64,000 bases of DNA, taken from positions 128,001 through 192,000 of the forward strand of contig CAWEJX010000006.1 in NCBI GenBank assembly GCA_963809485.1, in the 5' to 3' direction. Positions 49,032-64,000 of this stretch are shown piece after piece; positions within the stretch are counted from its first letter, which is position 1; every line of letters starts with the position of its first letter. Below the pieces are notes generated by a model. That model had not been told where the DNA came from and did no database searches. It saw nothing but the letters and a program-made list of their open reading frames with translations. The position numbers and the translations under genes were made by a program. This DNA comes from an uncultured Acidobacteriota bacterium (GTDB taxonomy: Bacteria > Acidobacteriota > UBA6911).

Positions 49032-50183
49032 ATGGCAAGGAATATTGTAGTGTGCTGTGACGGCACCGGCAACGAATACGGAGACAATAATACAAACGTT
49101 CTCAAGCTTTATTCCATCCTGCCCAAAAATGACGACGGGCAAATATCGTTTTATGATCCCGGCGTCGGCACTTACGCACTCCCTGCAACGCTTACAAAAG
49201 CCGTCAGGTCCGCTGCGAAAATCCTGGGTTTGGCTTTCGGGCGGGGGATTACGGCCAACATCGCCGATGCCTACCGGTTTCTGATGCGGACCTATGAACG
49301 CGGCGACCGTGTGTTTCTGTTCGGGTTCAGCCGCGGCGCATACACGGTCCGCGCCGTAGCGGCGATGCTGTATAAATGCGGGCTTCTGGATCAGCGGAAC
49401 GACAACCTGCTGCCCTGCGCGCTCAACCTCTTCAGGCATGAAATGCGGCCCAGGATTTATGCCGGATTCCGCCGCACCTTTTCCAGGCAATGTCCCGTTC
49501 ACTTTTTAGGAATATGGGATACGGTGAAATCCGTGGGCTGGATCTATGACCCGCTTACGCTTCAATTCACCAGAAGCAATCCCTGCGTGCGGGTCGTGAG
49601 GCACGCCGTAGCCATCGACGAGCGGCGATGTTTCTATCGACAGAACCTGTGGGGCTCGCCCGATGCGGGACAGGATGTGAAGCAGGCGTGGTTCGCCGGC
49701 TCGCATTCGGACGTCGGGGGGTCCTACCCCGAAAGGGAAAGCGGCCTTTCCCAGATTGCGCTGCAGTGGATGATAGAAGAAGCGATGCGCTGCGGGCTTG
49801 CGACCGACCGCAAACGGTATGAGACCGTGGTGCCGCGGACGGCTTCCACTGCGGAATACAGGACGGATGACGAGGATCAGGAAACCGAGTTTCACAGCCC
49901 TCCGGACTTCCGCGGCCCGATTCACGAATCCCTCAGAGGCTTCTGGTGGATCCCCGAATTCATCCCGAAGATGTATTTCGATCCGCGCGATGAGTACCGC
50001 AGAAAACTCATGATTCCGCGGGGCAGGAGACGCTGGATTCCCGAGGGTTCGGTTATTCACGAATCGGTGCTGCGTCGCATGCGGGACCCAGCGATGAACT
50101 ATCATCCTCCCAACCTGCCCAGGCAATACCAGGTGATCCCAAACACGGCGGAGTCCGGCGCCGCGGCAGAAAGCCTGTCTTGA
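49032..50183 (+). CDS. DUF2235 (Tle1-like) alpha/beta hydrolase
   Basis: CCDGTGN, TNV, YDPGVGT, FGFSRGA, GIWDTV, HAVAIDE.R and WFAG.HSDVGG motifs. Confidence 0.9.
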   Translation: MARNIVVCCDGTGNEYGDNNTNVLKLYSILPKNDDGQISFYDPGVGTYALPATLTKAVRSAAKILGLAFGRGITANIADAYRFLMRTYERGDRVFLFGFSRGAYTVRAVAAMLYKCGLLDQRNDNLLPCALNLFRHEMRPRIYAGFRRTFSRQCPVHFLGIWDTVKSVGWIYDPLTLQFTRSNPCVRVVRHAVAIDERRCFYRQNLWGSPDAGQDVKQAWFAGSHSDVGGSYPERESGLSQIALQWMIEEAMRCGLATDRKRYETVVPRTASTAEYRTDDEDQETEFHSPPDFRGPIHESLRGFWWIPEFIPKMYFDPRDEYRRKLMIPRGRRRWIPEGSVIHESVLRRMRDPAMNYHPPNLPRQYQVIPNTAESGAAAESLS

Positions 50184-50512: not shown

Positions 50513-51937
50513 TCAGCCCGCAACCGGTGGAAGAGGCTTCACGGGAGTCTGGGCGGAGCGAGCCGACGTGATATCAATGGCACATTGGAAGTCATCAGGC
50601 TTCTCCAGAAGCAGTTCCATGCCTTGGGCTATGCATTCATCGAAGCTTTTAGGCACGCTGGCCGTGAATGTGGTCGAATTCATCGGAATCCAGTCGCCGC
50701 TCGATACCAGGGCCGCTGCAGCCCGATGATCGTGAAGGACAGGGCTGTTGAGCATTTTCTCCTGTGTCCACACGCCGAAGAAAGCATGACCCCGGATTAT
50801 GAAGACGAGAGGGTGAAGCCCTATTCTTTCCAGACACGATGCGCAAAGAACCGCAAGGTCGAGGCAGGTCCCGTGGCGATGCTCGAGTATCTGCTCGGGG
50901 AAAAAGATCTTTTGCCACAATGTAAAACTTCCGTCCGGCAGCTTTTCCCCCCGCTCGAAGCTGGCCGGAGGATTGATATAACCCAGCTGCAGGTCCTCCT
51001 GAAGAACCAGGTAGAGGGCTCCGATCATCTCGAGTGCTTTTTCGGGGCTTCCGCTCTGATAACCGCTCAGGCTGGCGTCGTGACGCTCGCGCCGAAGGCG
51101 TGCCTGTGCCAGGGAAACGATTTTTTCGACGGCAACAGAATTCGGTTGTACGAAGCAGGCGAGGGTTTGGGCAATAGCCGGGTGGTAATACCAGTCGTTA
51201 TAGGCAAGTACCTCAATGGGCAGGGTCTCGGAATACTGCAGGGAACCTTCCGTGTAGACATCCGCGCGCAACCCTGCTCTTTCAGCTTCGCGAACCTCCT
51301 GCAGCCGGCTCCTGTTCAGAGGGATCACGATATCAGATTCGGTGTGCGTGCCTCCCGGTGAGACAGAGGGCACGCTCTTCTGCCAGGGTTCGCCGTAATC
51401 AGGCGCCACCCAGGCTTTTATCAGAAGGTCGTGGGCAGGTTCCGCCGAGGTATTTCGGACAGCAAGGGAACGGATGAGCGGCAGCCCTGCGTGAGTCAGC
51501 GCATAGCTCAAGCGGGGAAGCATCTGAATCTGGACCTCAAGGTTGCGTGTTGTCACTTGTTCCAACGATGGACGCTGTACGGTTCGGGAAAGCCCGGCCG
51601 CGTCCGCTGCCGGCAGTCTGGATTCCGGAAATGCAGCGGGCGTGCCGCGATCCTGCCGGTCAGACATCTGGGTGCGGAAGTCGGGCAAGCCCGGCATGGA
51701 GCTGTCCAGATCCGAAATGGAGGAGTTTGCCTCGCGCAGGGCGTCAGACAACTCTCTCTGGATGTCCTTGAGGATACCGCTCCTCTGTTGCCGAAGCACG
51801 TCGCGCACTCCGTGCACGCTGCTCTGAAGGTTTTTGCTCTCTCCTTTTTCAGGGAGGGGGGCCGGCAGCGGTTTGCCGCAGTTCTGACAAAACTTTCCCC
51901 CGCCGCCTTCTTCGTTGCAGTTTGGGCATAAAGCCAT
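50513..51937 (-). CDS. Zinc-ribbon plus transglutaminase/papain-like domain protein
   Basis: N-terminal CPNC..KFCQNCG. C-terminal Y.NPPASFE..QKI..P..IL....GTCLD....ASCLE.IGLHP....GHAF.GVW. Confidence 0.75.
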   Translation of the reverse strand: MALCPNCNEEGGGGKFCQNCGKPLPAPLPEKGESKNLQSSVHGVRDVLRQQRSGILKDIQRELSDALREANSSISDLDSSMPGLPDFRTQMSDRQDRGTPAAFPESRLPAADAAGLSRTVQRPSLEQVTTRNLEVQIQMLPRLSYALTHAGLPLIRSLAVRNTSAEPAHDLLIKAWVAPDYGEPWQKSVPSVSPGGTHTESDIVIPLNRSRLQEVREAERAGLRADVYTEGSLQYSETLPIEVLAYNDWYYHPAIAQTLACFVQPNSVAVEKIVSLAQARLRRERHDASLSGYQSGSPEKALEMIGALYLVLQEDLQLGYINPPASFERGEKLPDGSFTLWQKIFFPEQILEHRHGTCLDLAVLCASCLERIGLHPLVFIIRGHAFFGVWTQEKMLNSPVLHDHRAAAALVSSGDWIPMNSTTFTASVPKSFDECIAQGMELLLEKPDDFQCAIDITSARSAQTPVKPLPPVAG

Positions 51938-51960
51938 AATTCGCTGCCTCCTCTGTGGAC

Positions 51961-54018
51961 CTAATCGAAGAATTTGTGGCCGCAGTTTTCGCAGAATTTG
52001 CTGCCTTCAAGGGTTTCTGCGTGGCAATTCGGGCATACGGTCAGGCGTCCGCCCGAGCCTGAGGCGGACCCGGTCTGAACCATTCCACCTGCTCCCATGC
52101 CCGGAGTTATCACCGTCATCCCCGGCTGCGTGGCCCGCGTCGCCGCCATGGCAGTATCTCTCTGCGTTTCCATTCCCTTGGTGTACATTTCCTGCATCAT
52201 CTGGGCATACTGGCGGCTCATTTCCTTCAGGTCCGCCGTCCCCTGGTCCTTCATGGCCAGCATCCGGTCATAGACTCGCTGGATGTCCGCCGCCGAAGCA
52301 TTCTTGAACTTCTCCTGGAAAGCCTGTGCGACGGCGCCGCTTTTTTCGGCAGCCATGGCCAGGATCTGGTCTTCGCTGAATCCCTTGAGCGCTTCCGTGC
52401 GCTTGAGCTCCGCCAGCATCGCCGCCCGGTCTGCCGGTGCGGCGGCAATCAATGCCTCCGTCGACAAGGTGGATAGGGCCTGTATCTTTACCAGCTCCTG
52501 TTGGTGCCGTTGTGCTTCCGCTTTCATCTCGATTTCGGATACGCCGGCACGGGCCCGCAACTGACGCTCGATCTCCCGATCGGCATCCATCTGTTTTCTT
52601 TCCTTCATGAGATCCACCAGCTTCAGGCCGTCCGTTGCCTCCTGCATATCCAGCTCCTGTTCGGTCTGCCGCTCCAGGCGCTTTGCTTCAACCCGCTGCT
52701 TGATCGCCGCCCACTCCTGGGATTGGCGCGTCTCCATCTCCTTGCGGGATGCTTCCAGGCGGTGATCTAGCTGTGCCATTTCCTCGTCTCTCGTTGCATC
52801 CGTGATCGTGCGCTGCAAGGACAGCTTGCCAAGCATCTCGGCCTTCTGGAGCTCCGCCTGTTGCTCCAGCTTCAGCCGCTGTATCAGATGCTGGCGCAAT
52901 TGATCGTGATCTTCCTGTTTTTCGCTGAATTCACGCTGCAGCGTCTCATACTCGTCCTTGCGAAGGAACTTCTCCCTGTCCATTTCCATCATGAACTTCT
53001 CGAAATCGTCGTCGCTGCGGACTTTATCCATGCGATCGGATGCAACCGCCTTCCGCATCCGTTCGTAAACCCTGGCGCGCTCTTCGAACACATCCAGTTC
53101 CATGGCTGCCTTGGCGGTCTCCTGATCCAGGAGCTTGCGTTCGAGTCCGATGGTCTGGGCTCCCGCAAGCTGGGCCTCGAGGTCCTGGGCGTGCAGCCAG
53201 TATTCTTCCTTCTTTCCTGTCAATTCGTTCATGCGCGGATGCCGGAAATCAAAAATGCGCACATTGAGGAACGAAAGCCCTTTGCGGTCGAATGTTTTGG
53301 CCAGGTGCTGGGCGACGCCCTTTTCCATCTGCTGTTTGAAGGCAATGTCGGAGGAGAGCTCCAGCAAAGAGCGGCTCCGGATAAATTCCTGCAGGCAATT
53401 GTGCAGCTCCCCTTCCAGGAAGCTTTTGAGTTCGGCCAGCGGATAGTTTTGCCGGCTCTTCATCATGTTTTCGAAAAACTGCGTCGGATTGTCCATCTGC
53501 GCAACAAGGCGCGCATCGGCTGTAAGCCGGACCGGATCGCGCGTCAGCAGATCGGAAAACGAAAAAGGCAGCTCGATGTCGCCCGTATCGACCAGTACCG
53601 CCGTCGTAGTTTTCGAATTAAAGACATTCTTGATCTTTTGCAGCAGGCCGCCCATGTCATAGCGGCCCGGGTCAAGAATGCCCGATACCGCCCCGTTCAC
53701 GAAGAAAATGGCTTTCGTGCCGGCTTCAACAATCAGCCCACGTTTGAAGAATCCCTCGACATCGTCGACTTCCACTTTGGTAGCGAAGTCCTCGACTCGC
53801 CGGGCCCAACGATTGCCGGTCAGGGTGGGAGCGGCGCTTTCCGCGAGCGGCTTGCCGCAGTTGCCGCAGAACTTTTTATCTGCCGGAACCACGGCTCCGC
53901 AATTGTTGCACTTGATTTCCGATCCGGGCAGCCGTTCGCCGCAGCTTCCACAAAATCTGGAACCGGACTTGTTGGTGGCGTGGCATTTGGGACATTCGGT
54001 CTGAAATAATGGAACCAT
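51961..54018 (-). CDS. Double zinc-ribbon plus SPFH/Band-7 plus coiled-coil plus zinc-ribbon protein
   Basis: CPKC..FCGSCG and CNNCG..FCGNCG ribbons, LIVEAGTKAIFFVNG...LDPGRY (SPFH start), a long charged coiled coil and terminal CPNC..FCENCG. Start placed at ATG 54018. Confidence 0.82.
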   Translation of the reverse strand: MVPLFQTECPKCHATNKSGSRFCGSCGERLPGSEIKCNNCGAVVPADKKFCGNCGKPLAESAAPTLTGNRWARRVEDFATKVEVDDVEGFFKRGLIVEAGTKAIFFVNGAVSGILDPGRYDMGGLLQKIKNVFNSKTTTAVLVDTGDIELPFSFSDLLTRDPVRLTADARLVAQMDNPTQFFENMMKSRQNYPLAELKSFLEGELHNCLQEFIRSRSLLELSSDIAFKQQMEKGVAQHLAKTFDRKGLSFLNVRIFDFRHPRMNELTGKKEEYWLHAQDLEAQLAGAQTIGLERKLLDQETAKAAMELDVFEERARVYERMRKAVASDRMDKVRSDDDFEKFMMEMDREKFLRKDEYETLQREFSEKQEDHDQLRQHLIQRLKLEQQAELQKAEMLGKLSLQRTITDATRDEEMAQLDHRLEASRKEMETRQSQEWAAIKQRVEAKRLERQTEQELDMQEATDGLKLVDLMKERKQMDADREIERQLRARAGVSEIEMKAEAQRHQQELVKIQALSTLSTEALIAAAPADRAAMLAELKRTEALKGFSEDQILAMAAEKSGAVAQAFQEKFKNASAADIQRVYDRMLAMKDQGTADLKEMSRQYAQMMQEMYTKGMETQRDTAMAATRATQPGMTVITPGMGAGGMVQTGSASGSGGRLTVCPNCHAETLEGSKFCENCGHKFFD

Positions 54019-54133
54019 GGCGAGTCTCCAAGATAGATGCTCAGTCCAACTGCAGCATGGAAACAGAGCAGTCATTTAATGGCCAGGGAACGAAAATTGA
54101 TGCAATCGAGCAAATACCCGTGGCCTGATATTA

Positions 54134-55744
54134 TCATGGCTTGAGCCCCTGTGTTCTTGGAATCTGAGGGATCCGCACAGTAATTTGGGCGGCGGAGCCT
54201 CCCAGCAATTCGATCGGCAGCGACCGGGAACCCAGAGGAAGCATGCTTGCCTCGCCCGGGCGAATTTCCTGCACCAGCCGGCGGCTTCCCGGCGAGCCCT
54301 GAACCTCAAAAAAAGCCTTGCAGGACGATTCTTTAAGCCAGAAAAAACCATGACGGCGGGTTCCTATGCGTGTGAGGCGGATGTGCCATAAATTTTCACC
54401 GTCAAAGCTCCGCCAGCCTTCTCCCACTTTCAAAGTGTGTTCCCCTTGCAGTCCCGCAAAAGGATCAAATATGGAAAACTCGATACCGCCATCGCGGGCA
54501 ATGGAGGATAGCACCTCCTCGGGCGCACGGAAGGGCTTCTGCCTGGCCTGAAGGATTCTCCGGATCTGCTCCCTTTCCTGAGGTGAAAAGGGTGAATTGG
54601 AAGAGCCGAGGACATTGCTTTCAAAGACCTCGCACAGCCTTGCGGTCAGTTCCTCGGAGCTCTGCTGCGAAATCATAGTATTTTCCAGCACCTGTTTCAG
54701 AATCAGATATTTTTTGCGGGAGATTTCGATCTTGCCTCGCAGCTCGTCAATCTCTTTCTGCTCCAGCTCCATGCGCAAGGTTTTCTCTTTGAGAGCCTGG
54801 TCTTTTTGCAGTGCGCGTACAACCTCATCAAAATGCTCTGCGTCCTCGATCTCGCGAAGTTTTCCCGCAAGGATCTCCTGGCGCCAGGCTCCGCGCAATC
54901 GGCTGATTTCCAATTCCGCTGCCAGTTTGCTCTTCTCCTGGGAAGCTTGTTCGAGTTTCTCATAAAGACTATCCAGGAATTCGCTGCGCAGCCTCGCCCG
55001 GAAAACTCGAACCAGTTCAAGCCCCGAATCCTCCGATGCCCTTGGGAGCCAGATGGATGCTTTTTCCATGCATGCGGATTCCATCCCCCGTGCCCCAACG
55101 ATGTCTTCACCGGAAAGTGAGGCCGCCCACTCTCGTGCCTCAGCCTGCAGGCCCTCGACGAGCTTGCCCCTGAATCCGGACGGCATCAGCGATGCGAGGT
55201 CTTGTGCAATGTCGATAAGCCTGTCCGGCCGCAATCGGAAGCACGCGTGGATCTGCAGGGAGAGCTGGCAATGGTCGGCGGCAAATAGGGGCTCGATGCA
55301 GAGTTCAAGCGGGAATTCGGCCTGGTTATACAGTACGGCCCTGGCATCGCTGTTGAGCCCTTTCCGGCCGGCAATCCTGTCGAGTGCTTTTGAACCATGT
55401 CGCCCGCCGGCAAGCCGCTCCTGAACGACGCATGCGTGCACAATCGCACATCGCCAGCCTTTGGGGACTACGAGGCCGCGTCTGGCTGTGTCCCACTCCA
55501 CCTGCCGAACAAGCGGTTCTTCCGCGGCGGAAACCCTTTGAGTCTCCTGCCTGGCTGCCTTCTCATCCTGCGGCCGCCCGGCTGTGGTCCCTCCAAAGCC
55601 GAAGATCTTCGCTGCCGGTTTCCGGATTTTTCGCGCAAAGCCGAGCAAAAGAGTAGTTGTAACGGCGCAGGTGAACGGTTTCCAGTAATCCCGTAGCCAT
55701 TCCAAAAGAGAAACCAGAAAGGAGCCCTCAGCCGGGAGTGCCAT
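54134..55744 (-). CDS. Membrane-anchored divergent SPFH-like coiled-coil protein
   Basis: N-terminal hydrophobic segment, GLVVPKGW.CAIV (SPFH-like), SGLELVRV, then a coiled coil. Layout parallels the neighbouring SPFH protein. Confidence 0.6.
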   Translation of the reverse strand: MALPAEGSFLVSLLEWLRDYWKPFTCAVTTTLLLGFARKIRKPAAKIFGFGGTTAGRPQDEKAARQETQRVSAAEEPLVRQVEWDTARRGLVVPKGWRCAIVHACVVQERLAGGRHGSKALDRIAGRKGLNSDARAVLYNQAEFPLELCIEPLFAADHCQLSLQIHACFRLRPDRLIDIAQDLASLMPSGFRGKLVEGLQAEAREWAASLSGEDIVGARGMESACMEKASIWLPRASEDSGLELVRVFRARLRSEFLDSLYEKLEQASQEKSKLAAELEISRLRGAWRQEILAGKLREIEDAEHFDEVVRALQKDQALKEKTLRMELEQKEIDELRGKIEISRKKYLILKQVLENTMISQQSSEELTARLCEVFESNVLGSSNSPFSPQEREQIRRILQARQKPFRAPEEVLSSIARDGGIEFSIFDPFAGLQGEHTLKVGEGWRSFDGENLWHIRLTRIGTRRHGFFWLKESSCKAFFEVQGSPGSRRLVQEIRPGEASMLPLGSRSLPIELLGGSAAQITVRIPQIPRTQGLKP

Positions 55745-55836
55745 ATATCCAGGTGCCTCTATTTGTCAGCCTTCGTTTTTGGATAGCGGCCGTTAACCAT
55801 CGTGATTTTGCCAAATGCTTCCTGGGAAGCCATGGG

Positions 55837-57048
55837 TCAGTTGCTTCGCGCGAATTCCTGAAAGCGGGATTCAAGCTTCCTGCCCCGCGCGGCATCCACA
55901 CGGATGCGATCGAATGCCGTATCAAAATCGTTTTTGTTGAGCGGACGCGTCCTGATCCGGTACCCCTGTATTTTCTCCCTGCCCCCGTCCACGCATCGAG
56001 GGATATCCCCGTTCAGGTCTTCCACCATGATGTTCACCGCCTGGTTCGTAAGCCTTTCAAGATCCCTCCCGCTAAACCATTCTGTACGCCTGACAATATC
56101 GTCGAGCGCATAATCCAGCGCATGTCCTTCCTTGAGGATCAGGATATCCAGGATGGACCGGCGGGCTTGATCGTCGGGAAGAGGAATGTAGATCCGTTTC
56201 TGGAACCGGCTCAGCACTGCGTCGTCAAGATCCCAGGGCGCGTTGGTGGCGGCGATGGTCAGAACGAAACGGTCTTCGCCCTTGTCGGCGAGGCCGTCCA
56301 GTTCCGACAGAATGGTGGACAATACCCTGCGCTCGGCTCCGGATTCGGAACCCTCTCCTCGCGGAAGGCAAAGGGATTCCACCTCGTCGATGAAGACAAC
56401 GGCGAAACCTTCATCCGCTTCGCTTCGCGCCGCATCGAAAAGAGCCGTGATCAGCTTGGACGATTCGCCAAAATATTTCGAAAGCAGACTGCCGGATTTG
56501 ACGTTGAAAAAGGTTGCACCAAGCCCGTTGCTGGTGGCGGCGGCAAGCAGCGTTTTTCCCGTCCCGGGCGGTCCGTAAAAAAGGATCCGGCGCCAGCCTT
56601 CGAGCTTCACTCCTTCGGGCTTCTGCGCAAGGGCAAGTCCGTAAGTGAATTTGATTTCCCGCTTGGTTTCCTCCAGTCCGCCGATCTGGTCCCAGGTTAC
56701 TTTGGACCGATGGATCATCGCCGCGATGTCGCGTGTGTATTCCCCGCGTTCTCCCGATTCCGGCTCCCGCAGGTCTTTGGGCGCAATCGGGGGCGACGGT
56801 TTCGCGGCGATCCTTCTTTTGCCTGATTTCAAGGCCTCGGCAATAGCAAGGTACTGCGCGGCTTTCTGCCTGCGCCGTTGCTCATCCTCACGCGTCAGCG
56901 CATAGTCGGCGTACGTTTTCATCAATTTGGCTGCTGCCACATAAGCAGCCGCGGCCTCAGCCCCATTGTTTTCCGCTTCCAGGGACCTTGCCTCAGCCAA
57001 AGCTTTATCGAGCGACATCTTCACGGCGCCGCTGAGATCGACCTTCAT
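55837..57048 (-). CDS. Vps4/CdvC-like AAA+ ATPase with N-terminal MIT domain
   Basis: MIT-like A..LE...N..EA...Y..AA.L...RQKAAQYLAIAEALK. VTWDQIGGLEE.K, ILFYGPPGTGKT, LLSKYFGESSKL, FIDEVESL and AATNAPWDLD.A..SRFQKRIYIPLPD. Single AAA module. Confidence 0.85.
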   Translation of the reverse strand: MKVDLSGAVKMSLDKALAEARSLEAENNGAEAAAAYVAAAKLMKTYADYALTREDEQRRRQKAAQYLAIAEALKSGKRRIAAKPSPPIAPKDLREPESGERGEYTRDIAAMIHRSKVTWDQIGGLEETKREIKFTYGLALAQKPEGVKLEGWRRILFYGPPGTGKTLLAAATSNGLGATFFNVKSGSLLSKYFGESSKLITALFDAARSEADEGFAVVFIDEVESLCLPRGEGSESGAERRVLSTILSELDGLADKGEDRFVLTIAATNAPWDLDDAVLSRFQKRIYIPLPDDQARRSILDILILKEGHALDYALDDIVRRTEWFSGRDLERLTNQAVNIMVEDLNGDIPRCVDGGREKIQGYRIRTRPLNKNDFDTAFDRIRVDAARGRKLESRFQEFARSN

Positions 57049-57073
57049 GAATGACTCCCTTCACAGGCGAGGC

Positions 57074-57691
57074 CTATTCGTCCCGGACTTTTTCTGCCTT
57101 GATGGCCCGATTGATTTCCTCCTGATAGCGGTCGAGATCCTCTTCATCCGTGCCGCTTTCTTCTGCTTTTGCCATTTCCCCAATCGCCTTGTCGAACTGA
57201 GCGAACCCGGCGTCCTCCTTGACCTTGCCCCGGGTGACATCGATCTCCGCTTCACCCAGGATCTCCTCCAGCATATCCTGGAAAGCCTCGTCATCCACCT
57301 CGGCTGCGTCGATGGCCTTCTGGATGGAGCTTTCGCGGAAACGCACAATTATGTTCTGGAGGCTTTTGCGGTCCTTTTTCTTCTCCAGCATTTCCATTTT
57401 GCGCAGGAAAGAAGTCAGCGCAGTTTTTGAGAGCGACAGGCGGCGGAGATCCGTGTTGGTATAGCTGTTGTCGATCTCCAGCTGCCGCATCTCCCGGAAA
57501 AGGTCGCGCAGCAACTCCTGCTTTCCGGACCTCTTTGCCGCAACAGCTTCGCGGATCTTCTCCTGTTTGGTGCGCTCACTGACTTCCAGGTCGCGTCGTT
57601 TCTTCTTTTGTTCCCTGTCGATTTCCTTGAGCTGAACCTTGAGATCCGGGGCCGTTGGGGTTTTGCTGAAAAGACTGTTCCAGAAGTTCAT
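57074..57691 (-). CDS. ESCRT-III (Snf7/CdvB)-like helical protein C
   Basis: 205 aa, predicted all-helical. N-terminal amphipathic MNFWNSLFSK, basic hairpin (IREAVAAKRSG), acidic C-half and a terminal amphipathic helix. Confidence 0.6.
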   Translation of the reverse strand: MNFWNSLFSKTPTAPDLKVQLKEIDREQKKKRRDLEVSERTKQEKIREAVAAKRSGKQELLRDLFREMRQLEIDNSYTNTDLRRLSLSKTALTSFLRKMEMLEKKKDRKSLQNIIVRFRESSIQKAIDAAEVDDEAFQDMLEEILGEAEIDVTRGKVKEDAGFAQFDKAIGEMAKAEESGTDEEDLDRYQEEINRAIKAEKVRDE

Positions 57692-57741
57692 GATCTGTTC
57701 TCCTTTGCGTGATACGGTAACTTGGGGACCTGTGTATGCTT

Positions 57742-58353
57742 CTATTCCAGGTCGGCCTCTTTGTGTGTCCGCGGCGGCCGCTCCCGGCTGCTTTCCGGTC
57801 CTGGTCCGATGATTCGATTTTTGATTTCAGCCAGACGCTTTCGTTCGGCGGAATTGTTGACCGCCTCGGGCATCTGTGCGGTATTCTCGCCCGCGAGGCT
57901 CTCCCTTTTGTAAATTTCCAGGTTTTCCTCCACCTCTCCGATGAGCCGGTCAATCTGGTCTTCACTGACGCCGCGCGAGCGCATCGCCTCCATTTCCTGA
58001 ATTTTCGCGATCAGGTTGATGTGGAAATTTACATTCCCGTTATAAATACCTACCAGTTTCTCCAGGCTGTCGCGCTGGTTGCCGTAGCGCTCAATCCGAC
58101 GCAGGATGGTTGCCTCTTCCGTCGGAGAAAGCCCGCCTTTGCGGATCCTGTCCTCTTCCAGGAGCAGGGACTTTTCGAGCGCGATCAGCTGATCCTCGTG
58201 CTCCCTCAGTTCCATTTCATTCCTGCCCCGCTGCGCTTCCAGGCCCTTGAGCAGCTCGCGGGAATTCGCGGCCTTCAGGTATATATCCCGGGCATCATCG
58301 GGAACTTCAGCTCTTTGAAACAGGTTTTTCAGCTTGTCCATGACAGATAGCAT
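57742..58353 (-). CDS. ESCRT-III-like helical protein B
   Basis: 203 aa coiled-coil hairpin with an N-terminal amphipathic MDKLKNLF and a MIM1-like ERKRLAEIK near the C-terminus. Confidence 0.5.
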   Translation of the reverse strand: MLSVMDKLKNLFQRAEVPDDARDIYLKAANSRELLKGLEAQRGRNEMELREHEDQLIALEKSLLLEEDRIRKGGLSPTEEATILRRIERYGNQRDSLEKLVGIYNGNVNFHINLIAKIQEMEAMRSRGVSEDQIDRLIGEVEENLEIYKRESLAGENTAQMPEAVNNSAERKRLAEIKNRIIGPGPESSRERPPRTHKEADLE

Positions 58354-58362
58354 AGCGCCTCC

Positions 58363-59091
58363 CTAGTGTGCCGTTCTTTGTATCGCAAATCTTCCTTTGT
58401 GTTCGATGATTTGATAGCGCCCCTGGGAGGTTTCCACAGCTTCCTGCAAACCCGGGCGGCTGAGATGAAAATCAACGAGAAACGCATCCAGCGGGACTTG
58501 TCCGCCGGGGAAAAGCAAATCCGGGGCGGTGTTCATCGCTTTTTCAGCGCGTGTTCTTTCCTCTTCTGCCGTTTCCGGATTAAACAGATTTTTCCACGGA
58601 CCCTCACTGCCGAAAACCTGCCAGGCCGTTCCTTCAAAATGCTCCACGAGGTAGAAATGGATGTCGCTTCGATCAGGGGCATGGATCTTCCATGATTCCG
58701 GCCACCCTACGGGAGAATAGACTCCTATGCCGTGGGGGATGCCTTCCCTAATGTCGAGCCCCAAAGGGCCGGAAATTTGCTCCAAAAGGTTGTCGGCAGG
58801 GCGGAGCAGATCCTTTTCGCCCGTCAGCCCTGTGCCTTTGAGAGCGATGGCTGCCAGGCATAGACGGATCCGTTTAAGCAGACCGCTGCCAAATACAAAT
58901 CGCCGGACGTCGCCGAAGACTCTCTGCGGGGTTTGAACCTGAATTCCGGGGTCCGGGCGTATGATCTCGCCGGCTGAGGGGACTGCAATCTCGCGGCACG
59001 ATCGAACCTTCAGTTCGAAACGGCTCAGAAAGGCATCGCCAAGTCGTGTCTTTCCGTTAACGTCGCTTGTGTATGGATTCATCGGATTCAT
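58363..59091 (-). CDS. Hypothetical protein of the ESCRT-like cluster (possible C-terminal winged helix)
   Basis: 242 aa. ATGA overlap with the upstream ATPase. C-terminal helix-helix-beta-hairpin pattern (VPLDAFLVDFHLSRPGLQEAV...YQII). Confidence 0.65.
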   Translation of the reverse strand: MNPMNPYTSDVNGKTRLGDAFLSRFELKVRSCREIAVPSAGEIIRPDPGIQVQTPQRVFGDVRRFVFGSGLLKRIRLCLAAIALKGTGLTGEKDLLRPADNLLEQISGPLGLDIREGIPHGIGVYSPVGWPESWKIHAPDRSDIHFYLVEHFEGTAWQVFGSEGPWKNLFNPETAEEERTRAEKAMNTAPDLLFPGGQVPLDAFLVDFHLSRPGLQEAVETSQGRYQIIEHKGRFAIQRTAH

Positions 59092-60221
59092 GCCGGTCCA
59101 CCGCCTTTGGCGAACTTTTTGTAGCGTTCCAGCATTGAAGGTGTAACCGACGGCGCCACCTCCGAAATTGCCCGTCTGACATCCTGGAGCGTCAGGACGG
59201 CCTCAGCGCCGCTGCGTATCTGACGCTGAAATGGAAAGTCCGTAGCTTTGATGCACACACCCACGATATCGGCTCCGCTGTAGCCTTCCAGGGAGCCGGC
59301 GACTTCATGCAAATCGATTCCGGGATCCATGGGTATGCCATCGAGGTTCAGGTGCAATATCTGCTCCCGGGCTTCGGCATCCGGAAGACCGATATAGAAT
59401 TTCTCGCCGAAGCGGCCTGTGCGAAGCGCTGCCTCATCCAAATCCCACGGACGGTTCGTGGCGCCCATCAGCAAAAGGCAGTTGGTGTTCGAATTCAGCC
59501 CGTCGACCTGGGAAAGGAATTCGGGGACTACGCGGTTCATCACCGTGGAGTTGCCACCGCGCTTGCCGACCAGCGCTTCTGTTTCATCCAGGAAAACGAT
59601 GGAGACCGGATAGCGCCGCGCCACGTCAAACAGCCGCGCGAGGTTTTGCTCGGCCACTCCCACCCACTGAGACATGATGCTGGAGCATTTCACGCTGAGA
59701 AACCGGGCATCCAGCTCGGTCGCGACGGCTTTGGCGATCATGGTTTTACCGGTTCCCGGAGGGCCGTAGAGCAGGATGCCGCCGCCCGCCCTCTTTTTAA
59801 ATCGATGGGCTGCATCCGGATGGCGAAAGGGATATAGGACGCGCAGATCGATAGCTTCTTTTACGGATTTCAGGCCCGCAATCTGATCAAACCGGATGTC
59901 CGGCTTTTCCGAGACTATCCATTTATCCTCCGGCGTCAGGTGATCATCCGCTTCCCTGGGCGATGCCGTCTGGAGTCTGCTTTGGTCCGCCCCCCGTTTG
60001 GGTGAGATTTGCTGCAGCGGAAGGCCGAAGGCCATATCGCGCAGGCGCAGGCTCTTTTCCCATCGGATTCGCTTCAGGCTGCCATCCGAATTCCGGGCTG
60101 CTTTGAGCAGGTATTTGGCGGCACGCAGCAGATGAATGCGAGCCCGGGCTTTATCTCCGGCTGTAAGATAATCGATACCCTGATCCTTGTTTTTTTCGTA
60201 TTGATCCAGGTAGAACTGCAT
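59088..60221 (-). CDS. Vps4/CdvC-like AAA+ ATPase with MIT-like N-terminus
   Basis: Three-helix N-terminus. EKPDIRFDQIAGL..VKEAI...V.YP..HP, GILLYGPPGTGKT.IAKAVATE, IMSQWVG.AE, FLDE, EFLSQVDG, GATNRPWDLD, GYSGADI and PSV....LERY.KF. Confidence 0.85.
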   Translation of the reverse strand: MQFYLDQYEKNKDQGIDYLTAGDKARARIHLLRAAKYLLKAARNSDGSLKRIRWEKSLRLRDMAFGLPLQQISPKRGADQSRLQTASPREADDHLTPEDKWIVSEKPDIRFDQIAGLKSVKEAIDLRVLYPFRHPDAAHRFKKRAGGGILLYGPPGTGKTMIAKAVATELDARFLSVKCSSIMSQWVGVAEQNLARLFDVARRYPVSIVFLDETEALVGKRGGNSTVMNRVVPEFLSQVDGLNSNTNCLLLMGATNRPWDLDEAALRTGRFGEKFYIGLPDAEAREQILHLNLDGIPMDPGIDLHEVAGSLEGYSGADIVGVCIKATDFPFQRQIRSGAEAVLTLQDVRRAISEVAPSVTPSMLERYKKFAKGGGPA

Positions 60222-60252
60222 GGGAGCTGATCCGCGATGGCAAGCGGACTCC

Positions 60253-60855
60253 TTATTTTTGTTCCTTGTTCAGTTCCTCTTCAATGTCGGCAATGTCTTT
60301 GTCAATCTGATCATCAATCCCCTTGCGCTCCTCGTGAGCCACTTCCTCTTCAAGCATCTTCTCGATATCGCGATCACTTACCAGCTCCTCCTCGGAGCTT
60401 CCCTCGTAACCGAACATCGACTCCGATGTGGTTTCCAGGAAAGCATCCATGCGCTCTTCGATGCTTTCGGCCTTGGACATGGCCTTTTCAAAATTCACCT
60501 GGGTTTTGGCCATGTCCGTGGACCCGAAAACCTCGGCGATCGACTTGGAGAAAGCGTTCATAGCCTTGGCAAAATCGTAATGGCCTTCGGCCTGGTCCTT
60601 TAGTTGTGTGGCGGATTCCAGCGCCAAAAGCTGGCGTTCGAGCCGGATTTTGATGGTTGCTGTCTTTTTGATGGCCTTTTTAAGGAATTCATATTGATTC
60701 GTCCAGCCCAGCTTGCGCGCCCGCTTTGCTTTTTCGATGTAATCCAGTTCGTATTTCTCGTTGGCCTTGAGCTGACGCCGGATTTGGGTTAACGCCTTGC
60801 GCACCTGGATGTTTCGCTCGATTCGCCTTTCCTCTTTGGACTTGAAGAGACTCAT
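60253..60855 (-). CDS. ESCRT-III (CdvB/CHMP1-like) protein A
   Basis: 200 aa with a very basic N-half (IEKAKRARKLG...RLERQLLALESA) and FEKAM...ESIEERMD. Acidic C-terminal tail. Lies directly upstream of a Vps4-like gene. Confidence 0.7.
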   Translation of the reverse strand: MSLFKSKEERRIERNIQVRKALTQIRRQLKANEKYELDYIEKAKRARKLGWTNQYEFLKKAIKKTATIKIRLERQLLALESATQLKDQAEGHYDFAKAMNAFSKSIAEVFGSTDMAKTQVNFEKAMSKAESIEERMDAFLETTSESMFGYEGSSEEELVSDRDIEKMLEEEVAHEERKGIDDQIDKDIADIEEELNKEQK

Positions 60856-60996
60856 GCCTGGCCCCTTTCTTAAATCTTTTTGCGAGCTGCTTCCTGAACC
60901 CTGATCCCGGACTTGAGGAAGTGATCCCGGAGATCCTGCCTTGGCGGATAGCCGCGGAACCAGACTCTCCGCCGACAGGCTAATCGCCCGGGATTT

Positions 60997-61260
60997 TTAA
61001 AGCCATGTATGACCTTCCGAGCACTGGTGGGAGGAATAATGGCCTTGCGTCAGACAACAAGCGCGCAGGCAAGCCGGGCAGGCGTAGGCGCATTGGGTCG
61101 TATTGTCCATGATTCCCGTTGCGCCTGCCGGCGTGCCGTCCTTCGTTCTCTCCTTTGAAGCGCCGGATCCTGAAATTCTCTCAATTTCACCCTGTGTTTC
61201 TTTCAGCTTTTTGCTGATCTCTGCCTTAATCCTTTCCAGGTCGTCCTCGATGGTTCCCAT
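60997..61260 (-). CDS. Small protein with an amphipathic helix and a Cys/His-rich metal-binding tail
   Basis: GAGG RBS. IEDDLERIKAEISKKL, then C-x3-C-x2-C-x3-CC-x4-H-x3-H-x-C-x3-H. Confidence 0.65.
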   Translation of the reverse strand: MGTIEDDLERIKAEISKKLKETQGEIERISGSGASKERTKDGTPAGATGIMDNTTQCAYACPACLRACCLTQGHYSSHQCSEGHTWL

Positions 61261-61356
61261 AGCCGCATCCTCGGGTGGGGATAATTTTCGGATTTCAACA
61301 CCTGCCTGCTTGATCCAGCCCCGGGCGATAGAGACGGAGTGCCTGACTCCATCGGC

Positions 61357-62358
61357 TCAGGGAAGAGTAGCGTTCAACCGCTGCAGCAGCATATCTGTGA
61401 TTTTGCGAACATCGGCGGCGCCCCGCCCATAATCCAGCAGTTGAGGAATTTTCCTGCTGCTGGAAATGTGTATCGTAAAGCCTTCGGGGAGGGGGTGGAT
61501 CGTCGCCGAAATCGTCTGCCCGTAGGTCTGCCAGTTCCAACCGGTGCTGCCTCTAAGAGTCCGGGCGTTCGAATCCCACAGCAAATTCTTCGCTCCATAG
61601 GATTGGAAGACTTCCTCGATGATGGTTATGAGCTTCTGCTCGGGCAGATTGGTTTTTAGTATTCCTTCACCCATAAGCTGAACCATTGGCGGTTTTTGTT
61701 CTGCAGCGGGCTGATCTTGCTTTTCCGTGGGTTGCCGGGAACTCTGCCGCTTGGGATACATTTCGTGGTCGAGGCTCAACGCTTCCATACGTCGGCGCTC
61801 CATTTCGGCCCGGCGATTCTCGTCGTCCGATTTCCGACGATTTTCCTCTGCCAGCCGCAGTTTCTCCGCCTTGAGCACTTCCACTTCTTTTCGCGCTCTT
61901 TCGGCGGATGCGCAATGCTGGCAGCAGTTCAGTTCCTCATCCCGGTGGCGCACGCATATCCAGTCGCGATTGCATCGAAGACAACGGAAACTGGTGCTCC
62001 TTTCGGCGTATCCTCCACAGATGGGGCATACGGCTTGGGAGGCATGGGATTCCGGCGCGTGCGGTATGCCGATAATAATGTTGCCGACTTGTGCTCCCGC
62101 GTGGGAGTTATGAGTCGAGGCGTCGATATTTCCCTTGAGAATTCCGATATCGCCGGCGCGAAATCCTCCCGGGGCCTGCTGAGAAGCTCCCGTATCCTGT
62201 TCCGATAACAGAAAAGCGCATTCGGAGCAAAACCTCGCTCTTCCCTCTATTTTACTGCCGCAGTTGGGACACAGCCGCTCCTGGGCCAGAGGCTTTCCGC
62301 AATTTTCGCAAAACCTGCCTTCCCCGCCCTCCTGGTTGCATTGAACACAGATAGCCAT
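61357..62358 (-). CDS. Multi-zinc-ribbon protein (first gene of the cluster)
   Basis: CVQC..FCENCG, CPNCG..FCSEC and CPICG..C..C...C..H..CC..C motifs, a coiled coil and a C-terminal alpha/beta domain. GAGGG RBS. Confidence 0.8.
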   Translation of the reverse strand: MAICVQCNQEGGEGRFCENCGKPLAQERLCPNCGSKIEGRARFCSECAFLLSEQDTGASQQAPGGFRAGDIGILKGNIDASTHNSHAGAQVGNIIIGIPHAPESHASQAVCPICGGYAERSTSFRCLRCNRDWICVRHRDEELNCCQHCASAERARKEVEVLKAEKLRLAEENRRKSDDENRRAEMERRRMEALSLDHEMYPKRQSSRQPTEKQDQPAAEQKPPMVQLMGEGILKTNLPEQKLITIIEEVFQSYGAKNLLWDSNARTLRGSTGWNWQTYGQTISATIHPLPEGFTIHISSSRKIPQLLDYGRGAADVRKITDMLLQRLNATLP

Positions 62359-62837: not shown

Positions 62838-64000
62838 CTAAGTGACGCGGGAATTATCGAGCAGGGTGCTAAAATCGACAAGCGTGATCGGCGCGTATGC
62901 CGCACTGATTTTGTCCAGGGTGATTTCGCGACAATCCATGGGCTGTGGAATCCAGGCACCGGTCAGATGCAGGTGGGCGGGCGCCCCGGCGGCTTTGGCC
63001 TTGATGACAATCCCAAGAGGCTGGCCTTTGGCCACAAAGGTGCCCGGCAAGCCCGCTTCCGGCTTGATATGGCTATATAGGATGCAAAACACCTGGCCGC
63101 GCGAATTCAAAATGGACGGATGCCGGACGACAACCGTTTTGTTTATATAATCGTCAAGGATGGTGACGATCTCCCCGTCGGCGATCGCGCGGACCGGCGT
63201 CCCTTGCGGAATTGCCTGAACACTTCCGTCGGACCCATACCCTTGCGCAAAATCCACTCCCTCATGTTCGGTCCGGCGCCGGTTTTTCTCTCCCCACCAT
63301 TCAATATGCTCTCCAAAACCCGTTCCGGGAGGAAATATCCAGGATTGCAGACAGCATTCCTCCGTGAACCCTTTTAGCCACTCCCTGAACTCAGGTGCGA
63401 CAGACGCCGGCGGTTGCATTTGGATACTCCGTATCTCCTGATAATCCCGGAAGCTGATCCATTGGCTCTTTGGTTCGGGATTTGGTTCCAGGCTCAATTC
63501 GACCTGCACGAAAACCGGCAGGACCTCTCCGGACGGTTGCTTGTCTCCCCGCTGCAAGGCAATCCTGGCCATAATCCCGCTGGCCAATCGATCCTGGGGC
63601 ATTTTCCTGATTTCCGGTGTGATCTCAGTCGGCATCCCTGATGGATCCAGTGCAACGTAGCCGCAATCTCTTAAAATCACGCCCCAATGTTCCCTGGTGG
63701 GGGCGAAATAAGCGTATTGCCCTGGAATTGGACATATCCGGCCGGCTTGTTTTTCAACCCATCGGGCGGCGTATCTGCAGAATTCTTCGACTCCTGTTTT
63801 TGTGTCCTGGAATAATATTTCGATCGCCTCATAGCGCCGGTTTGGCTGCAGTCGATAAATGATCACAAGTCCGTCCGGATCAGCCGGGCGGGATTTGCGG
63901 ATCACATATCCGTGACCGGATTGGCGCTGATATGGAATCGAGACCGGGCAATTGCTGCTCGGAACGGTAGCCATGAAGGACATAGCGCCAATCGGCAGGC
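62838..64000 (-). CDS. M23-family metallopeptidase domain protein (probably 5'-partial)
   Basis: HEGVD, GTPVRAIADG, YSHI, VAKGQPLG and HLH motifs. The frame is open to the window edge. Confidence 0.75.
   Translation of the reverse strand, partial: LPIGAMSFMATVPSSNCPVSIPYQRQSGHGYVIRKSRPADPDGLVIIYRLQPNRRYEAIEILFQDTKTGVEEFCRYAARWVEKQAGRICPIPGQYAYFAPTREHWGVILRDCGYVALDPSGMPTEITPEIRKMPQDRLASGIMARIALQRGDKQPSGEVLPVFVQVELSLEPNPEPKSQWISFRDYQEIRSIQMQPPASVAPEFREWLKGFTEECCLQSWIFPPGTGFGEHIEWWGEKNRRRTEHEGVDFAQGYGSDGSVQAIPQGTPVRAIADGEIVTILDDYINKTVVVRHPSILNSRGQVFCILYSHIKPEAGLPGTFVAKGQPLGIVIKAKAAGAPAHLHLTGAWIPQPMDCREITLDKISAAYAPITLVDFSTLLDNSRVT

Follow-up and report, generated by a model that had tools for sequence, protein, structure and literature searches.

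Gene content and organization of the operon

The window analysed here is a stretch of 64,000 nucleotides (nt) from the genome of an uncultured soil bacterium of the phylum Acidobacteriota (contig CAWEJX010000006.1, positions 128,001–192,000; the assembly is 95.67% complete, with 7.32% contamination). [quoted passage not shown] By analogy, its function would be the ATP-driven turnover of membrane-bound ESCRT-III-like polymers. The locus had been singled out in an earlier reading made from the nucleotide sequence alone (hereafter, the sequence-only reading), and the 11 co-oriented, closely spaced genes described there are all present in the ORF list and translations.

From the upstream end, the genes are g01, g02, helA, AAA1, g05, helB, helC, AAA2, g09, g10 and g11, with intergenic distances, calculated from the coordinates, of 96, 141, 31, −4 (an overlap), 9, 50, 25, 92, 58 and 23 nt, respectively. 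Promoter- and terminator-like sites at the operon are not commoner than in shuffled sequences, and its limits are therefore drawn from the spacing and co-orientation of the genes. None of the 11 proteins contains a transmembrane-like segment, and scans against Pfam and NCBIfam assigned no family of their own to helA, helB, helC, g05 and g09.

A Snf7-family subunit

The gene helA (60253–60855, minus strand) encodes a protein of 200 amino acids (aa) and is always located directly upstream of an ATPase gene. From a collection of 5.8 billion proteins, 190 homologues of helA were retrieved, and 34 of these were aligned (alignment A1). The Pfam Snf7 model (PF03357) matches 19 of these 34 family members at E ≤ 0.01 (best E = 6.5e-8), and the best matches of the A1 profile among PDB sequences are Snf7 (E = 0.025), CHMP2A (0.041) and CHMP3 (1.1). 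The same profile detects, with 80.2 bits, a 188-aa Snf7-like protein encoded on a plasmid of Thermococcus peptonophilus, which matches Snf7 weakly (20.5 bits) and the gene of which lies two genes downstream of that for an ATPase with a Vps4_C domain (35.8 bits), with a PP2C phosphatase gene in between. The N-terminal half of helA is basic (net charge +12) and the C-terminal half acidic (−18), and its homologues share a conserved amphipathic C-terminal helix which is predicted to bind MIT domains. Collectively, these sequence similarities identify helA as an ESCRT-III/Snf7-family subunit.

Membership in the PspA/Vipp1 family was considered and rejected, given that the PspA_IM30 (PF04012) model matched neither helA, helB and helC nor the sequences aligned with them. 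The best raw Snf7 score in the genome (20.1 bits, E = 0.0014) belongs to a coiled-coil protein of 236 aa that has a C4 zinc ribbon at its end and is encoded on another contig (locus L068, contig C17, 1117–1827, minus strand), and is taken here as a chance coiled-coil match.

Two Vps4-like ATPases

The two ATPases of the operon are 35% identical to each other. AAA1 (59088–60221, minus strand; 377 aa) is a Vps4-like paralogue that combines an N-terminus of MIT-like type with a single AAA cassette and a Vps4_C-type tail, whereas AAA2 (55837–57048, minus strand; 403 aa), with MIT, AAA and a Vps4_C-type tail, appears to be the Vps4 counterpart. Each contains a single AAA cassette (Pfam AAA, E = 1e-36 for AAA1 and 1.5e-34 for AAA2), and the motifs on which the sequence-only reading relied are all found in the translations, namely, SKYFGES and ATNAPWDLD in AAA2, and SQWVG and ATNRPWDLD in AAA1. 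The GPPGTGKT motif and the D-E pair are invariant in the alignments of both AAA1 and AAA2 orthologues, indicating intact Walker A and Walker B motifs. The Vps4_C domain was detected in 22 of the 38 AAA1 orthologues from related loci (best E = 2.2e-8) and in 18 of the 36 AAA2 orthologues (best E = 2.2e-7); in the window itself, AAA1 scores 20.0 bits against a cut-off of 21.3, and AAA2 has no match.

By profile comparison, the N-terminal regions of both ATPases, described as three-helix segments in the sequence-only reading, resemble MIT domains. The profile of the first 95 residues of the AAA2 orthologues matches the MIT domain of Vps4B (2cpt, E = 6.9e-4) and further MIT entries of Vps4A, Vps4B and SKD1, and the best PDB match of the corresponding AAA1 profile is 2mpk (E = 7.2e-4), which we take to be a MIT domain. 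Among the NCBIfam models, CdvC is the best for both proteins (213.8 bits for AAA1 and 174.3 bits for AAA2), the runners-up being CDC48 (199.4 and 151.1 bits) and PAN (177.3 and 151.3 bits), with all these scores far below the equivalog cut-offs. Furthermore, in a tblastn search against plasmid records, AAA2 matches an ATPase of Chlorohelix (Chloroflexota) with 289 bits (45.9% identity, with 96% of the query covered), followed by those of Thermococcus (242 bits) and Halomicrobium (approximately 205 bits); among the matches listed, those annotated as CDC48 reach at most 170 bits.

To place the two ATPases, we used a phylogeny of 54 AAA domains rooted with three FtsH sequences (quick IQ-TREE search, LG+C20 model, support from the Shimodaira–Hasegawa-like approximate likelihood ratio test, SH-aLRT), which left out 18 AAA1 and 17 AAA2 orthologues. 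AAA2, the Chlorohelix ATPase and three archaeal Vps4-like ATPases form a clade (SH-aLRT 99), within which AAA2 is sister to the ATPases of Thermococcus and Halomicrobium. AAA1 forms a clade of its own (99) that is sister to the assemblage of AAA2 and archaeal Vps4-like ATPases (95), with CDC48 D1, CDC48 D2 and FtsH falling outside. AAA2 thus has a Vps4 architecture and, in this tree, groups with the archaeal Vps4-like ATPases, and AAA1 is a second ATPase of the same architecture.

Two further searches with the ATPases were not used for classification. The phmmer ranking against PDB was swamped by the summed scores of two-domain CDC48/p97 proteins; the best single-stretch matches in this unused ranking are Vps4 for AAA1 and a katanin p60-like protein for AAA2. 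A search with AAA1 against 1.84 billion representative sequences was dominated by multi-AAA proteins and provided no usable outgroups. Among the proteins related to AAA1, three (P0244, P0247 and P0249; 659–718 aa) resemble it nearly end to end in their first half (query residues 7–373) and contain a second matched stretch thereafter; such proteins may represent fusions of two ATPases of the system.

Candidate ESCRT-III paralogues

Two additional helical proteins are encoded between the ATPase genes. helC (57074–57691, minus strand; 205 aa), the gene of which is directly upstream of AAA2, is a probable ESCRT-III-like subunit, and helB (57742–58353, minus strand; 203 aa), with a helical hairpin, is a candidate divergent subunit of the same kind. 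The AlphaFold2 model of helC, built from the family alignment (mean predicted local distance difference test score, pLDDT, 78.6), consists of a hairpin (residues 14–55 and 58–104), shorter helices (108–129 and 134–145), a disordered linker and two C-terminal helices; that of helB (pLDDT 88.3) comprises a hairpin (31–72 and 77–126) and two helices (131–156 and 167–182). A hairpin followed by shorter helices is the order found in ESCRT-III proteins. The weak Foldseek matches of helC include CHMP3 (probability 0.72–0.77), CdvB2, PspA and Vipp1, and the top, non-significant PDB match of helB is the CdvB2 filament (E = 0.12).

Comparison of profiles with hhalign connects helC to helA, with a score that depends on alignment depth. 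With the large alignments (51 helA, 26 helC and 22 helB sequences, together with 33 and 10 sequences of c6 and c9, two protein families from related loci), the helA–helC probability is 81.6% (E = 1.1e-5, 137 columns), and further values are 97.1% for helC–c6, 97.6% for helB–c9 (helB and the Planctomycetota c9 belong to the same family) and 78.1% for c6–c9, the last of these being the only link through which helB is tied in; the connection to helA is moderate for both proteins. All pairs that involve g05 or the families c3, c7 or c14 remain at or below 3.3%. The c6 family profile, in turn, detects two proteins of approximately 200 aa in the Thermococcus locus (59.0 and 56.0 bits) and a Chlorohelix protein (101.4 bits). 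In a protein atlas, the nearest named clusters of helC carry the Snf7 label (0.94 and 0.93), although recognition is low and the result is a lead only. The clusters with this label (16–20% of members with PF03357) come from Lentisphaerota and Verrucomicrobiota; the family may reach across the Planctomycetes–Verrucomicrobia–Chlamydiae (PVC) group.

Other comparisons were uninformative. Pairwise BLASTP among helA, helB and helC gave nothing meaningful, the helB and helC profiles retrieved only chance coiled-coil matches among PDB sequences, and no Pfam domains were recorded in the 120 helB homologues listed, of 123 found. Complex prediction for AAA2 residues 1–95 with the helC tail (residues 120–205) returned no answer (score 0.01), which counts neither for nor against an interaction. 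The layout with a basic N-terminal and an acidic C-terminal half, attributed to all three helical proteins in the sequence-only reading, holds for helA and helC (+8 and −12) but not for helB (−2 and −4). The ESCRT-III fold proposed there is compatible with the findings in so far as the helA family is of the Snf7 type by sequence and helB and helC are modelled as hairpins, whereas neither Foldseek nor Pfam yielded a significant match for the latter two. Overall, helC is probably an ESCRT-III-superfamily paralogue, and for helB the same affiliation is possible.

SPFH-like, zinc-ribbon and other partners

The largest protein of the operon, g10 (51961–54075, minus strand; 704 aa), is an SPFH/Band_7 protein (Pfam Band_7, 57.2 bits against a cut-off of 23.6, residues 115–278) in which zinc ribbons, two at the N-terminus and one at the C-terminus (Zn_Ribbon_1, E = 1.4e-17, three stretches), accompany a long coiled coil. 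Among its 38 homologues, 36 have a precomputed Band_7 match and all but one have zinc-ribbon matches. The SPFH family comprises membrane scaffolds. The adjacent gene g09 (54134–55744, minus strand) encodes a 536-aa protein with a divergent SPFH-like region, a coiled coil and a C-terminal domain. Its SPFH-likeness comes through c3, a family of proteins of approximately 640 aa from related loci: the c3 profile matches g10 with 68.3 bits (residues 86–343) and g09 with 41.1 bits over the whole protein and 40.6 bits for residues 124–375, whereas g09 has no Pfam match, and the BLASTP alignment of g09 with g10 is colinear but non-significant (E = 1.2). The sole c3 representative scanned against Pfam had no match. 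Given that c3 is homologous to the SPFH regions of both g10 and g09, an SPFH-like partner is one of the conserved components, with g09 as a divergent relative of it. The connection to SPFH is stronger than could be recognized from the window alone, because in Planctomycetota, as well, the system comes with an SPFH-like homologue.

The protein g05 (58363–59091, minus strand; 242 aa) is a candidate adaptor, which is conserved and always encoded directly upstream of helB or its relatives. Its family has no informative Pfam or PDB match, and in the protein atlas it is adjacent only to its own Planctomycetota cluster (0.92); judging from the alignment, its C-terminus may be winged-helix-like. Seven of the 28 ORFs of the g05 family (alignment A9) match a MerR helix-turn-helix model (best E = 1.7e-7), and some are as long as approximately 510–550 aa (for instance, L009:2252–3895 and L012:4078–5613), suggesting that MerR is fused to their N-terminus or that the start has been set too far upstream.

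The remaining genes lie at the ends of the operon. At its upstream end, g01 (61357–62358, minus strand; 333 aa) encodes an N-terminal double zinc ribbon (DZR, E = 7.7e-6, 26.4 bits against a cut-off of 27.3; Zn_Ribbon_1, E = 2.1e-5), another stretch rich in Cys, a charged coiled region and, at the C-terminus, a domain of no known family, and g02 (60997–61260, minus strand; 87 aa), which has a Cys/His-rich C-terminus but no meaningful Pfam, NCBIfam or PADLOC match, is a candidate gene only. At the downstream end, g11 (50513–51937, minus strand; 474 aa) combines an N-terminal zinc ribbon with a possible transglutaminase-like cysteine-protease domain (DUF553, E = 0.0059, 16.5 bits against a cut-off of 20.5). 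Searches of PDB with g10 and g11 yielded no significant match. The zinc ribbon of g01 and the SPFH domain of g10 were correctly labelled in the sequence-only reading, whereas the SPFH label of g09 follows from the profile only and the transglutaminase-like label of g11 is sub-threshold. Directly upstream of the operon and on the same strand, a 381-aa ORF with an M23 peptidase domain (62838–63983, minus strand; E = 7.9e-10) has no relative, by tblastn, in the 67 loci with helA relatives described below.

Evidence weighing against an ESCRT assignment

Several observations argue against the interpretation of the operon as an ESCRT machine. On the side of the helical proteins, the window helA itself falls below every Pfam threshold (Snf7, 14.4 bits, E = 0.077, in the scan of its own genome); the Foldseek searches against PDB with the helB and helC models yielded no match at E ≤ 0.001; Pfam Snf7 matches only one of 25 helB members, among many coiled-coil matches, and none of 15 helC members; and with small alignments, the hhalign probabilities are as low as 0.7% for helA–helB, 8.9% for helA–helC and 0.8% for helB–helC. 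Long helical proteins are, moreover, prone to spurious profile and fold matches. As for the partners, g01, g02 and g11 are not conserved beyond the window and its closest relative, locus L001: across the 67 loci, g01 has a single weak tblastn match (L050, 29% identity) that does not support its conservation, g02 has no relative and g11 is seen only in the window and L001. With respect to the ATPases, both miss the 650-bit cut-off of the CdvC equivalog model (NF041006) and are relatives rather than equivalogs of CdvC, and the families listed for the AAA1 and AAA2 orthologue sets do not include the Pfam MIT model. The AAA tree, obtained in a quick search, includes only three archaeal references and no PAN, katanin, spastin, CdvC or eukaryotic Vps4. 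Finally, constraining AAA1 to group with CDC48 D2 lowers the log-likelihood by 18.0 units, a difference too small for rejection (approximately unbiased test, p-AU = 0.097), the AAA1 core profile scores higher with CDC48 D2 (246.7–267.6 bits) than with the Thermococcus ATPase (215.8 bits), and the AAA1 family consensus contains LRPGRFD, presumably a motif of CDC48/PAN/FtsH-type ATPases. Thus, the placement of the ATPases in the meiotic clade, as advanced in the sequence-only reading, is supported for AAA2, which in this tree groups with archaeal Vps4-like proteins and not with CDC48 or FtsH, and is less certain for AAA1 relative to CDC48 D2.

These CDC48-like features of AAA1 are compatible with a different interpretation, namely, that the operon encodes a cytosolic protein-unfolding or quality-control module, in which two CDC48-derived single-ring unfoldases would work with coiled-coil adaptors without remodelling membranes, the Snf7 similarity being a relic. 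The lack of transmembrane segments in all proteins and of significant ESCRT-III matches for helB and helC would fit such a module as well. However, AAA2 clusters with the archaeal Vps4-like ATPases with a support of 99 and has an N-terminus that matches the MIT domain of Vps4, helA has a close relative in the ESCRT-III-like protein encoded at an archaeal ESCRT locus, and an SPFH-family partner is conserved with the system. Moreover, neither the window operon nor the ten cluster representatives scanned contain an identifiable protease or proteasome gene. Accordingly, we consider a soluble unfoldase improbable and retain the ESCRT-III/Vps4-type machine as the best explanation: its identity is supported by homology, although the sequence-only reading as a whole is only partly supported.

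Distribution and co-conservation

A survey limited to one genome per species identified 67 loci encoding helA relatives. The closest of these are from Acidobacteriota metagenome-assembled genomes (MAGs; 80% identity), and most are from Planctomycetota, with additional representatives in Sumerlaeota, Hydrogenedentes and Brocadiia. It is by its similarity to such named MAG loci that the contig of the window is assigned to Acidobacteriota. At least one tblastn match to AAA1 or AAA2 is present in 61 of the 67 loci (all except L008, L020, L034, L047, L060 and L063), in agreement with the co-conservation that the sequence-only reading requires. Clustering of the ORFs of the 67 loci and the window (plus strand only) showed that, outside the window, g05 is found in 28 loci, helC in 24, helB in 21, c6 in 22 (often in two copies), c9 in 10, c3 in 28, c7 (approximately 300 aa, no known family) in 13, and a Ser/Thr kinase + RDD family in 12. 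The typical gene order in Planctomycetota, g05-helB-helC-(AAA2)-helA-AAA1-c3, is a permutation of that in the window. Hence, helA, the ATPases and g05 recur across phyla in the company of helB-type and helC-type proteins and of an SPFH-like protein. In one MAG (G680), the entire cluster is found on two contigs, C20 and C5 (L012 and L014), in nearly identical form and without differences in gene order or gene length, which is either a duplication or an assembly artefact.

Despite this broad reach, the system is sparsely distributed. helA is present in two of 301 sampled genomes of the window's phylum, including the genome under study, in none of three from the same genus, and in 74 of 401 sampled Planctomycetota genomes. 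Copies also are found on plasmids of Chlorohelix (Chloroflexota) and of the euryarchaea Thermococcus and Halomicrobium. For instance, the locus on the Chlorohelix allophototropha plasmid (L075; NZ_CP128401.1, 1–11404) includes a c6-like gene (101.4 bits), a gene for a 194-aa protein, an AAA2-like ATPase gene (45.9% identity) and two genes for Ser/Thr kinases; a helA relative was not seen within these 11.4 kb, which begin at base 1 of a circular record, so that the upstream part is outside the view. The system is therefore accessory rather than a universal divisome.

This distribution bears on whether the operon could encode a Cdv-like cell-division or budding machine that replaces FtsZ. Division of Thermoproteota by ESCRT-III/Vps4, as described in two papers, provides a precedent (PMC7619361, PMC10936438). 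Most of the related loci come from Planctomycetota, in which, to our knowledge, FtsZ is missing, and such a machine would matter there. Yet an essential divisome is unlikely because too few genomes carry helA, namely, 74 of 401 in Planctomycetota and two of 301 in the window's phylum; furthermore, no CdvA-like gene was identified, and the archaeal relatives that were found belong to Euryarchaeota, which use FtsZ and for which the available part of the literature on main-clade ESCRT proposes roles in sorting or vesicle formation (PMC10936438). A division machine is thus the least probable of the interpretations considered here, and we regard it as very unlikely.

The same patchiness, along with the plasmid copies in Chlorohelix, Thermococcus and Halomicrobium and the Ser/Thr kinase + RDD gene in 12 loci, could point to a role in conflict, in which the same parts would seal, shed or disrupt the membrane upon infection, under the control of Ser/Thr kinases in other phyla. 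The possible cysteine-protease domain of g11 could be accommodated here, as could the adjoining ORF downstream of the operon (49032–50183, plus strand; 383 aa), which contains a type VI secretion system (T6SS) Tle1-like phospholipase domain (PF09994, E = 1.6e-79). However, this ORF lies on the opposite strand, convergent with the operon's end, and does not accompany the cluster elsewhere. Membership in known anti-phage systems (PADLOC-DB 2.0) was rejected, given that only generic AAA-domain similarities (IetA, TRIP13 and mad8) and a weak coiled-coil match to JetC were obtained, with no system-specific protein. Family scans of the window operon detected neither a nuclease nor a sensor NTPase, nor any other effector typical of defence, and a patchy distribution is equally expected of any accessory stress system. 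We therefore view an anti-phage role for the ESCRT-III/Vps4-type machine as doubtful, albeit less so than the other alternatives.

Relationship to known ESCRT and PspA systems

The closest known system is the euryarchaeal main-clade ESCRT, which, according to the accessible text of its description, consists of Vps4, ESCRT-III, two arCOG proteins, a kinase and a phosphatase, and occurs in Thermococcales, Methanococcales, Methanomicrobiales and Halobacteriales (Makarova et al. 2024, PMC10936438). As in that system, a gene for a Vps4-type ATPase adjoins ESCRT-III-type genes; the helA profile (80.2 bits) and the c6/helC family match proteins of the Thermococcus locus; and Ser/Thr kinases go with the system in Planctomycetota, Chlorohelix and Thermococcus. 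Unlike the main-clade ESCRT, the system described here is bacterial, has two Vps4-like ATPases instead of one and a conserved SPFH-like partner, and, in the window, no kinase or phosphatase gene was identified. The g05, c3 and c7 profiles match nothing at E ≤ 0.01 in the four archaeal and Chlorohelix loci; the two arCOG proteins that stand beside Vps4 and ESCRT-III in the main-clade system are arCOG09748 (winged-helix) and arCOG08177.

Similar to the crenarchaeal Cdv (CdvA-CdvB-CdvC) and eukaryotic ESCRT-III/Vps4 systems, several putative ESCRT-III paralogues are encoded beside an ATPase with the MIT-AAA-Vps4_C arrangement, CdvC is the best NCBIfam model, the CdvB2 filament is the top, albeit non-significant, fold match of helB, and Snf7, CHMP2A and CHMP3 are the top PDB matches of the helA profile. 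By contrast, the scores are far below the CdvC equivalog cut-off, and the sparse distribution gives no appearance of essentiality. No CdvA, ESCRT-I/II or ubiquitin components were identified in the operon.

The PspA/Vipp1 (IM30) proteins likewise are bacterial polymers of the ESCRT-III superfamily tied to membrane stress. The localization of PspA by the Bacillus SPFH protein YdjI is a precedent for a pairing with SPFH proteins (PMC7619361, PMC10936438, accessible portions). However, PspA systems lack a Vps4-type ATPase, as far as the available part of one review goes (PMC7619361), whereas the operon encodes two; in addition, helA matches Snf7 and not PspA_IM30, and PspA and Vipp1 appear only as weak fold matches of helC. 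A protein with SPFH, coiled-coil and zinc-ribbon regions is also a component of the archaeal 'Meth_adaptin' ESCRT system of Methanobacteriales, in the portion of the source that is accessible (PMC10936438). The architecture of g10 is the same, a likeness drawn by description only, and, unlike in Meth_adaptin, no adaptin-appendage, GOLD or ProX genes were identified in the operon.

The sequence-only reading had cautioned that bacterial Snf7/Vps4-like loci might already feature in comparative surveys, and transfers of Vps4-like ATPases into bacteria are indeed reported in the accessible text of one of them, with snf7, however, displaced there by a TPR and six-transmembrane (6TM) protein (Ravi, Aravind et al. 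2024, PMC11237479); in the window operon, by contrast, a Snf7-family gene is directly upstream of the ATPase gene. The same text mentions Snf7 homologues with a transmembrane segment that occur with an AAA+ ATPase in longer operons (PMC11237479). According to a 2025 review, Vps4-like ATPases appear to be lacking in bacteria (PMC7619361); ESCRT or Vps4 is denied to bacteria in two papers, and reviews place this membrane-cutting toolkit in archaea and eukaryotes only. Full-text literature searches yielded no description of a bacterial Snf7 and Vps4 cluster, including the accessible portions of PMC7619361, PMC11237479, PMC10936438, PMC7615534, PMC8281802, 10.1101/2022.11.08.515611 and PMC13051332; Tables S2 and S3 of PMC11237479 and PMC10936438, which fall outside this scope, may list relevant bacterial loci.

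A possible mechanism

Short conserved hydrophobic stretches are visible near the N-termini in the alignments of the helical proteins. Through these, helA, helC and probably helB would attach to the cytoplasmic face of the inner membrane, where they could co-polymerize via their helical hairpins into composite filaments. Each MIT domain would then grip a C-terminal helix in its neighbouring subunit, that is, helA in the case of AAA1 and helC in the case of AAA2, and the hexameric ATPases would thread and extract the subunits, such that the composition and curvature of the filament shift step by step and constriction, sealing or budding of the membrane results. The SPFH-like pair, g09 and g10, might serve as a scaffold attached to the membrane, by which the place of action is marked or kept within bounds, with the zinc ribbons common to g01, g10 and g11 acting as putative docking modules and g05 as a putative adaptor. 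The sparse distribution suggests that the task is conditional, for example, repair of envelope damage or release of vesicles, rather than housekeeping.

Implications for the evolution of ESCRT

What is new here is the combination of two ATPases and a dedicated SPFH-like partner in a bacterial system of the ESCRT-III/Vps4 type; the kind of system is itself already known. On balance, and with somewhat less confidence than in the assignment of the operon itself, we favour the view that this is the first recognized bacterial ESCRT machine with both ESCRT-III subunits and dedicated Vps4-type ATPases, that is, a conserved system of two ATPases and at least three paralogues with a new adaptor, g05, and an SPFH-like scaffold, which is represented in Planctomycetota, Acidobacteriota, Chloroflexota and probably other phyla, and is homologous to the euryarchaeal main-clade ESCRT. 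A conserved bacterial cluster that includes both parts contradicts the absence of Vps4-like ATPases from bacteria asserted in the accessible part of a recent review (PMC7619361).

If this view is correct, strictly defined ESCRT extends beyond the archaea and eukaryotes, and either the whole module crossed between domains or the partnership of Vps4 with ESCRT-III predates the archaeal ancestor. The system would thus bear on the time of origin of this partnership or on the transfer of whole membrane machines across domains. The design with two ATPases and multiple paralogues could reveal how composite ESCRT-III polymers are ordered, and the conserved SPFH partner would tie bacteria to the connections between SPFH proteins and ESCRT that have been noted in archaea and eukaryotes. 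The system would also offer a bacterial model of ATP-driven ESCRT-III remodelling, possibly in culturable Planctomycetota.

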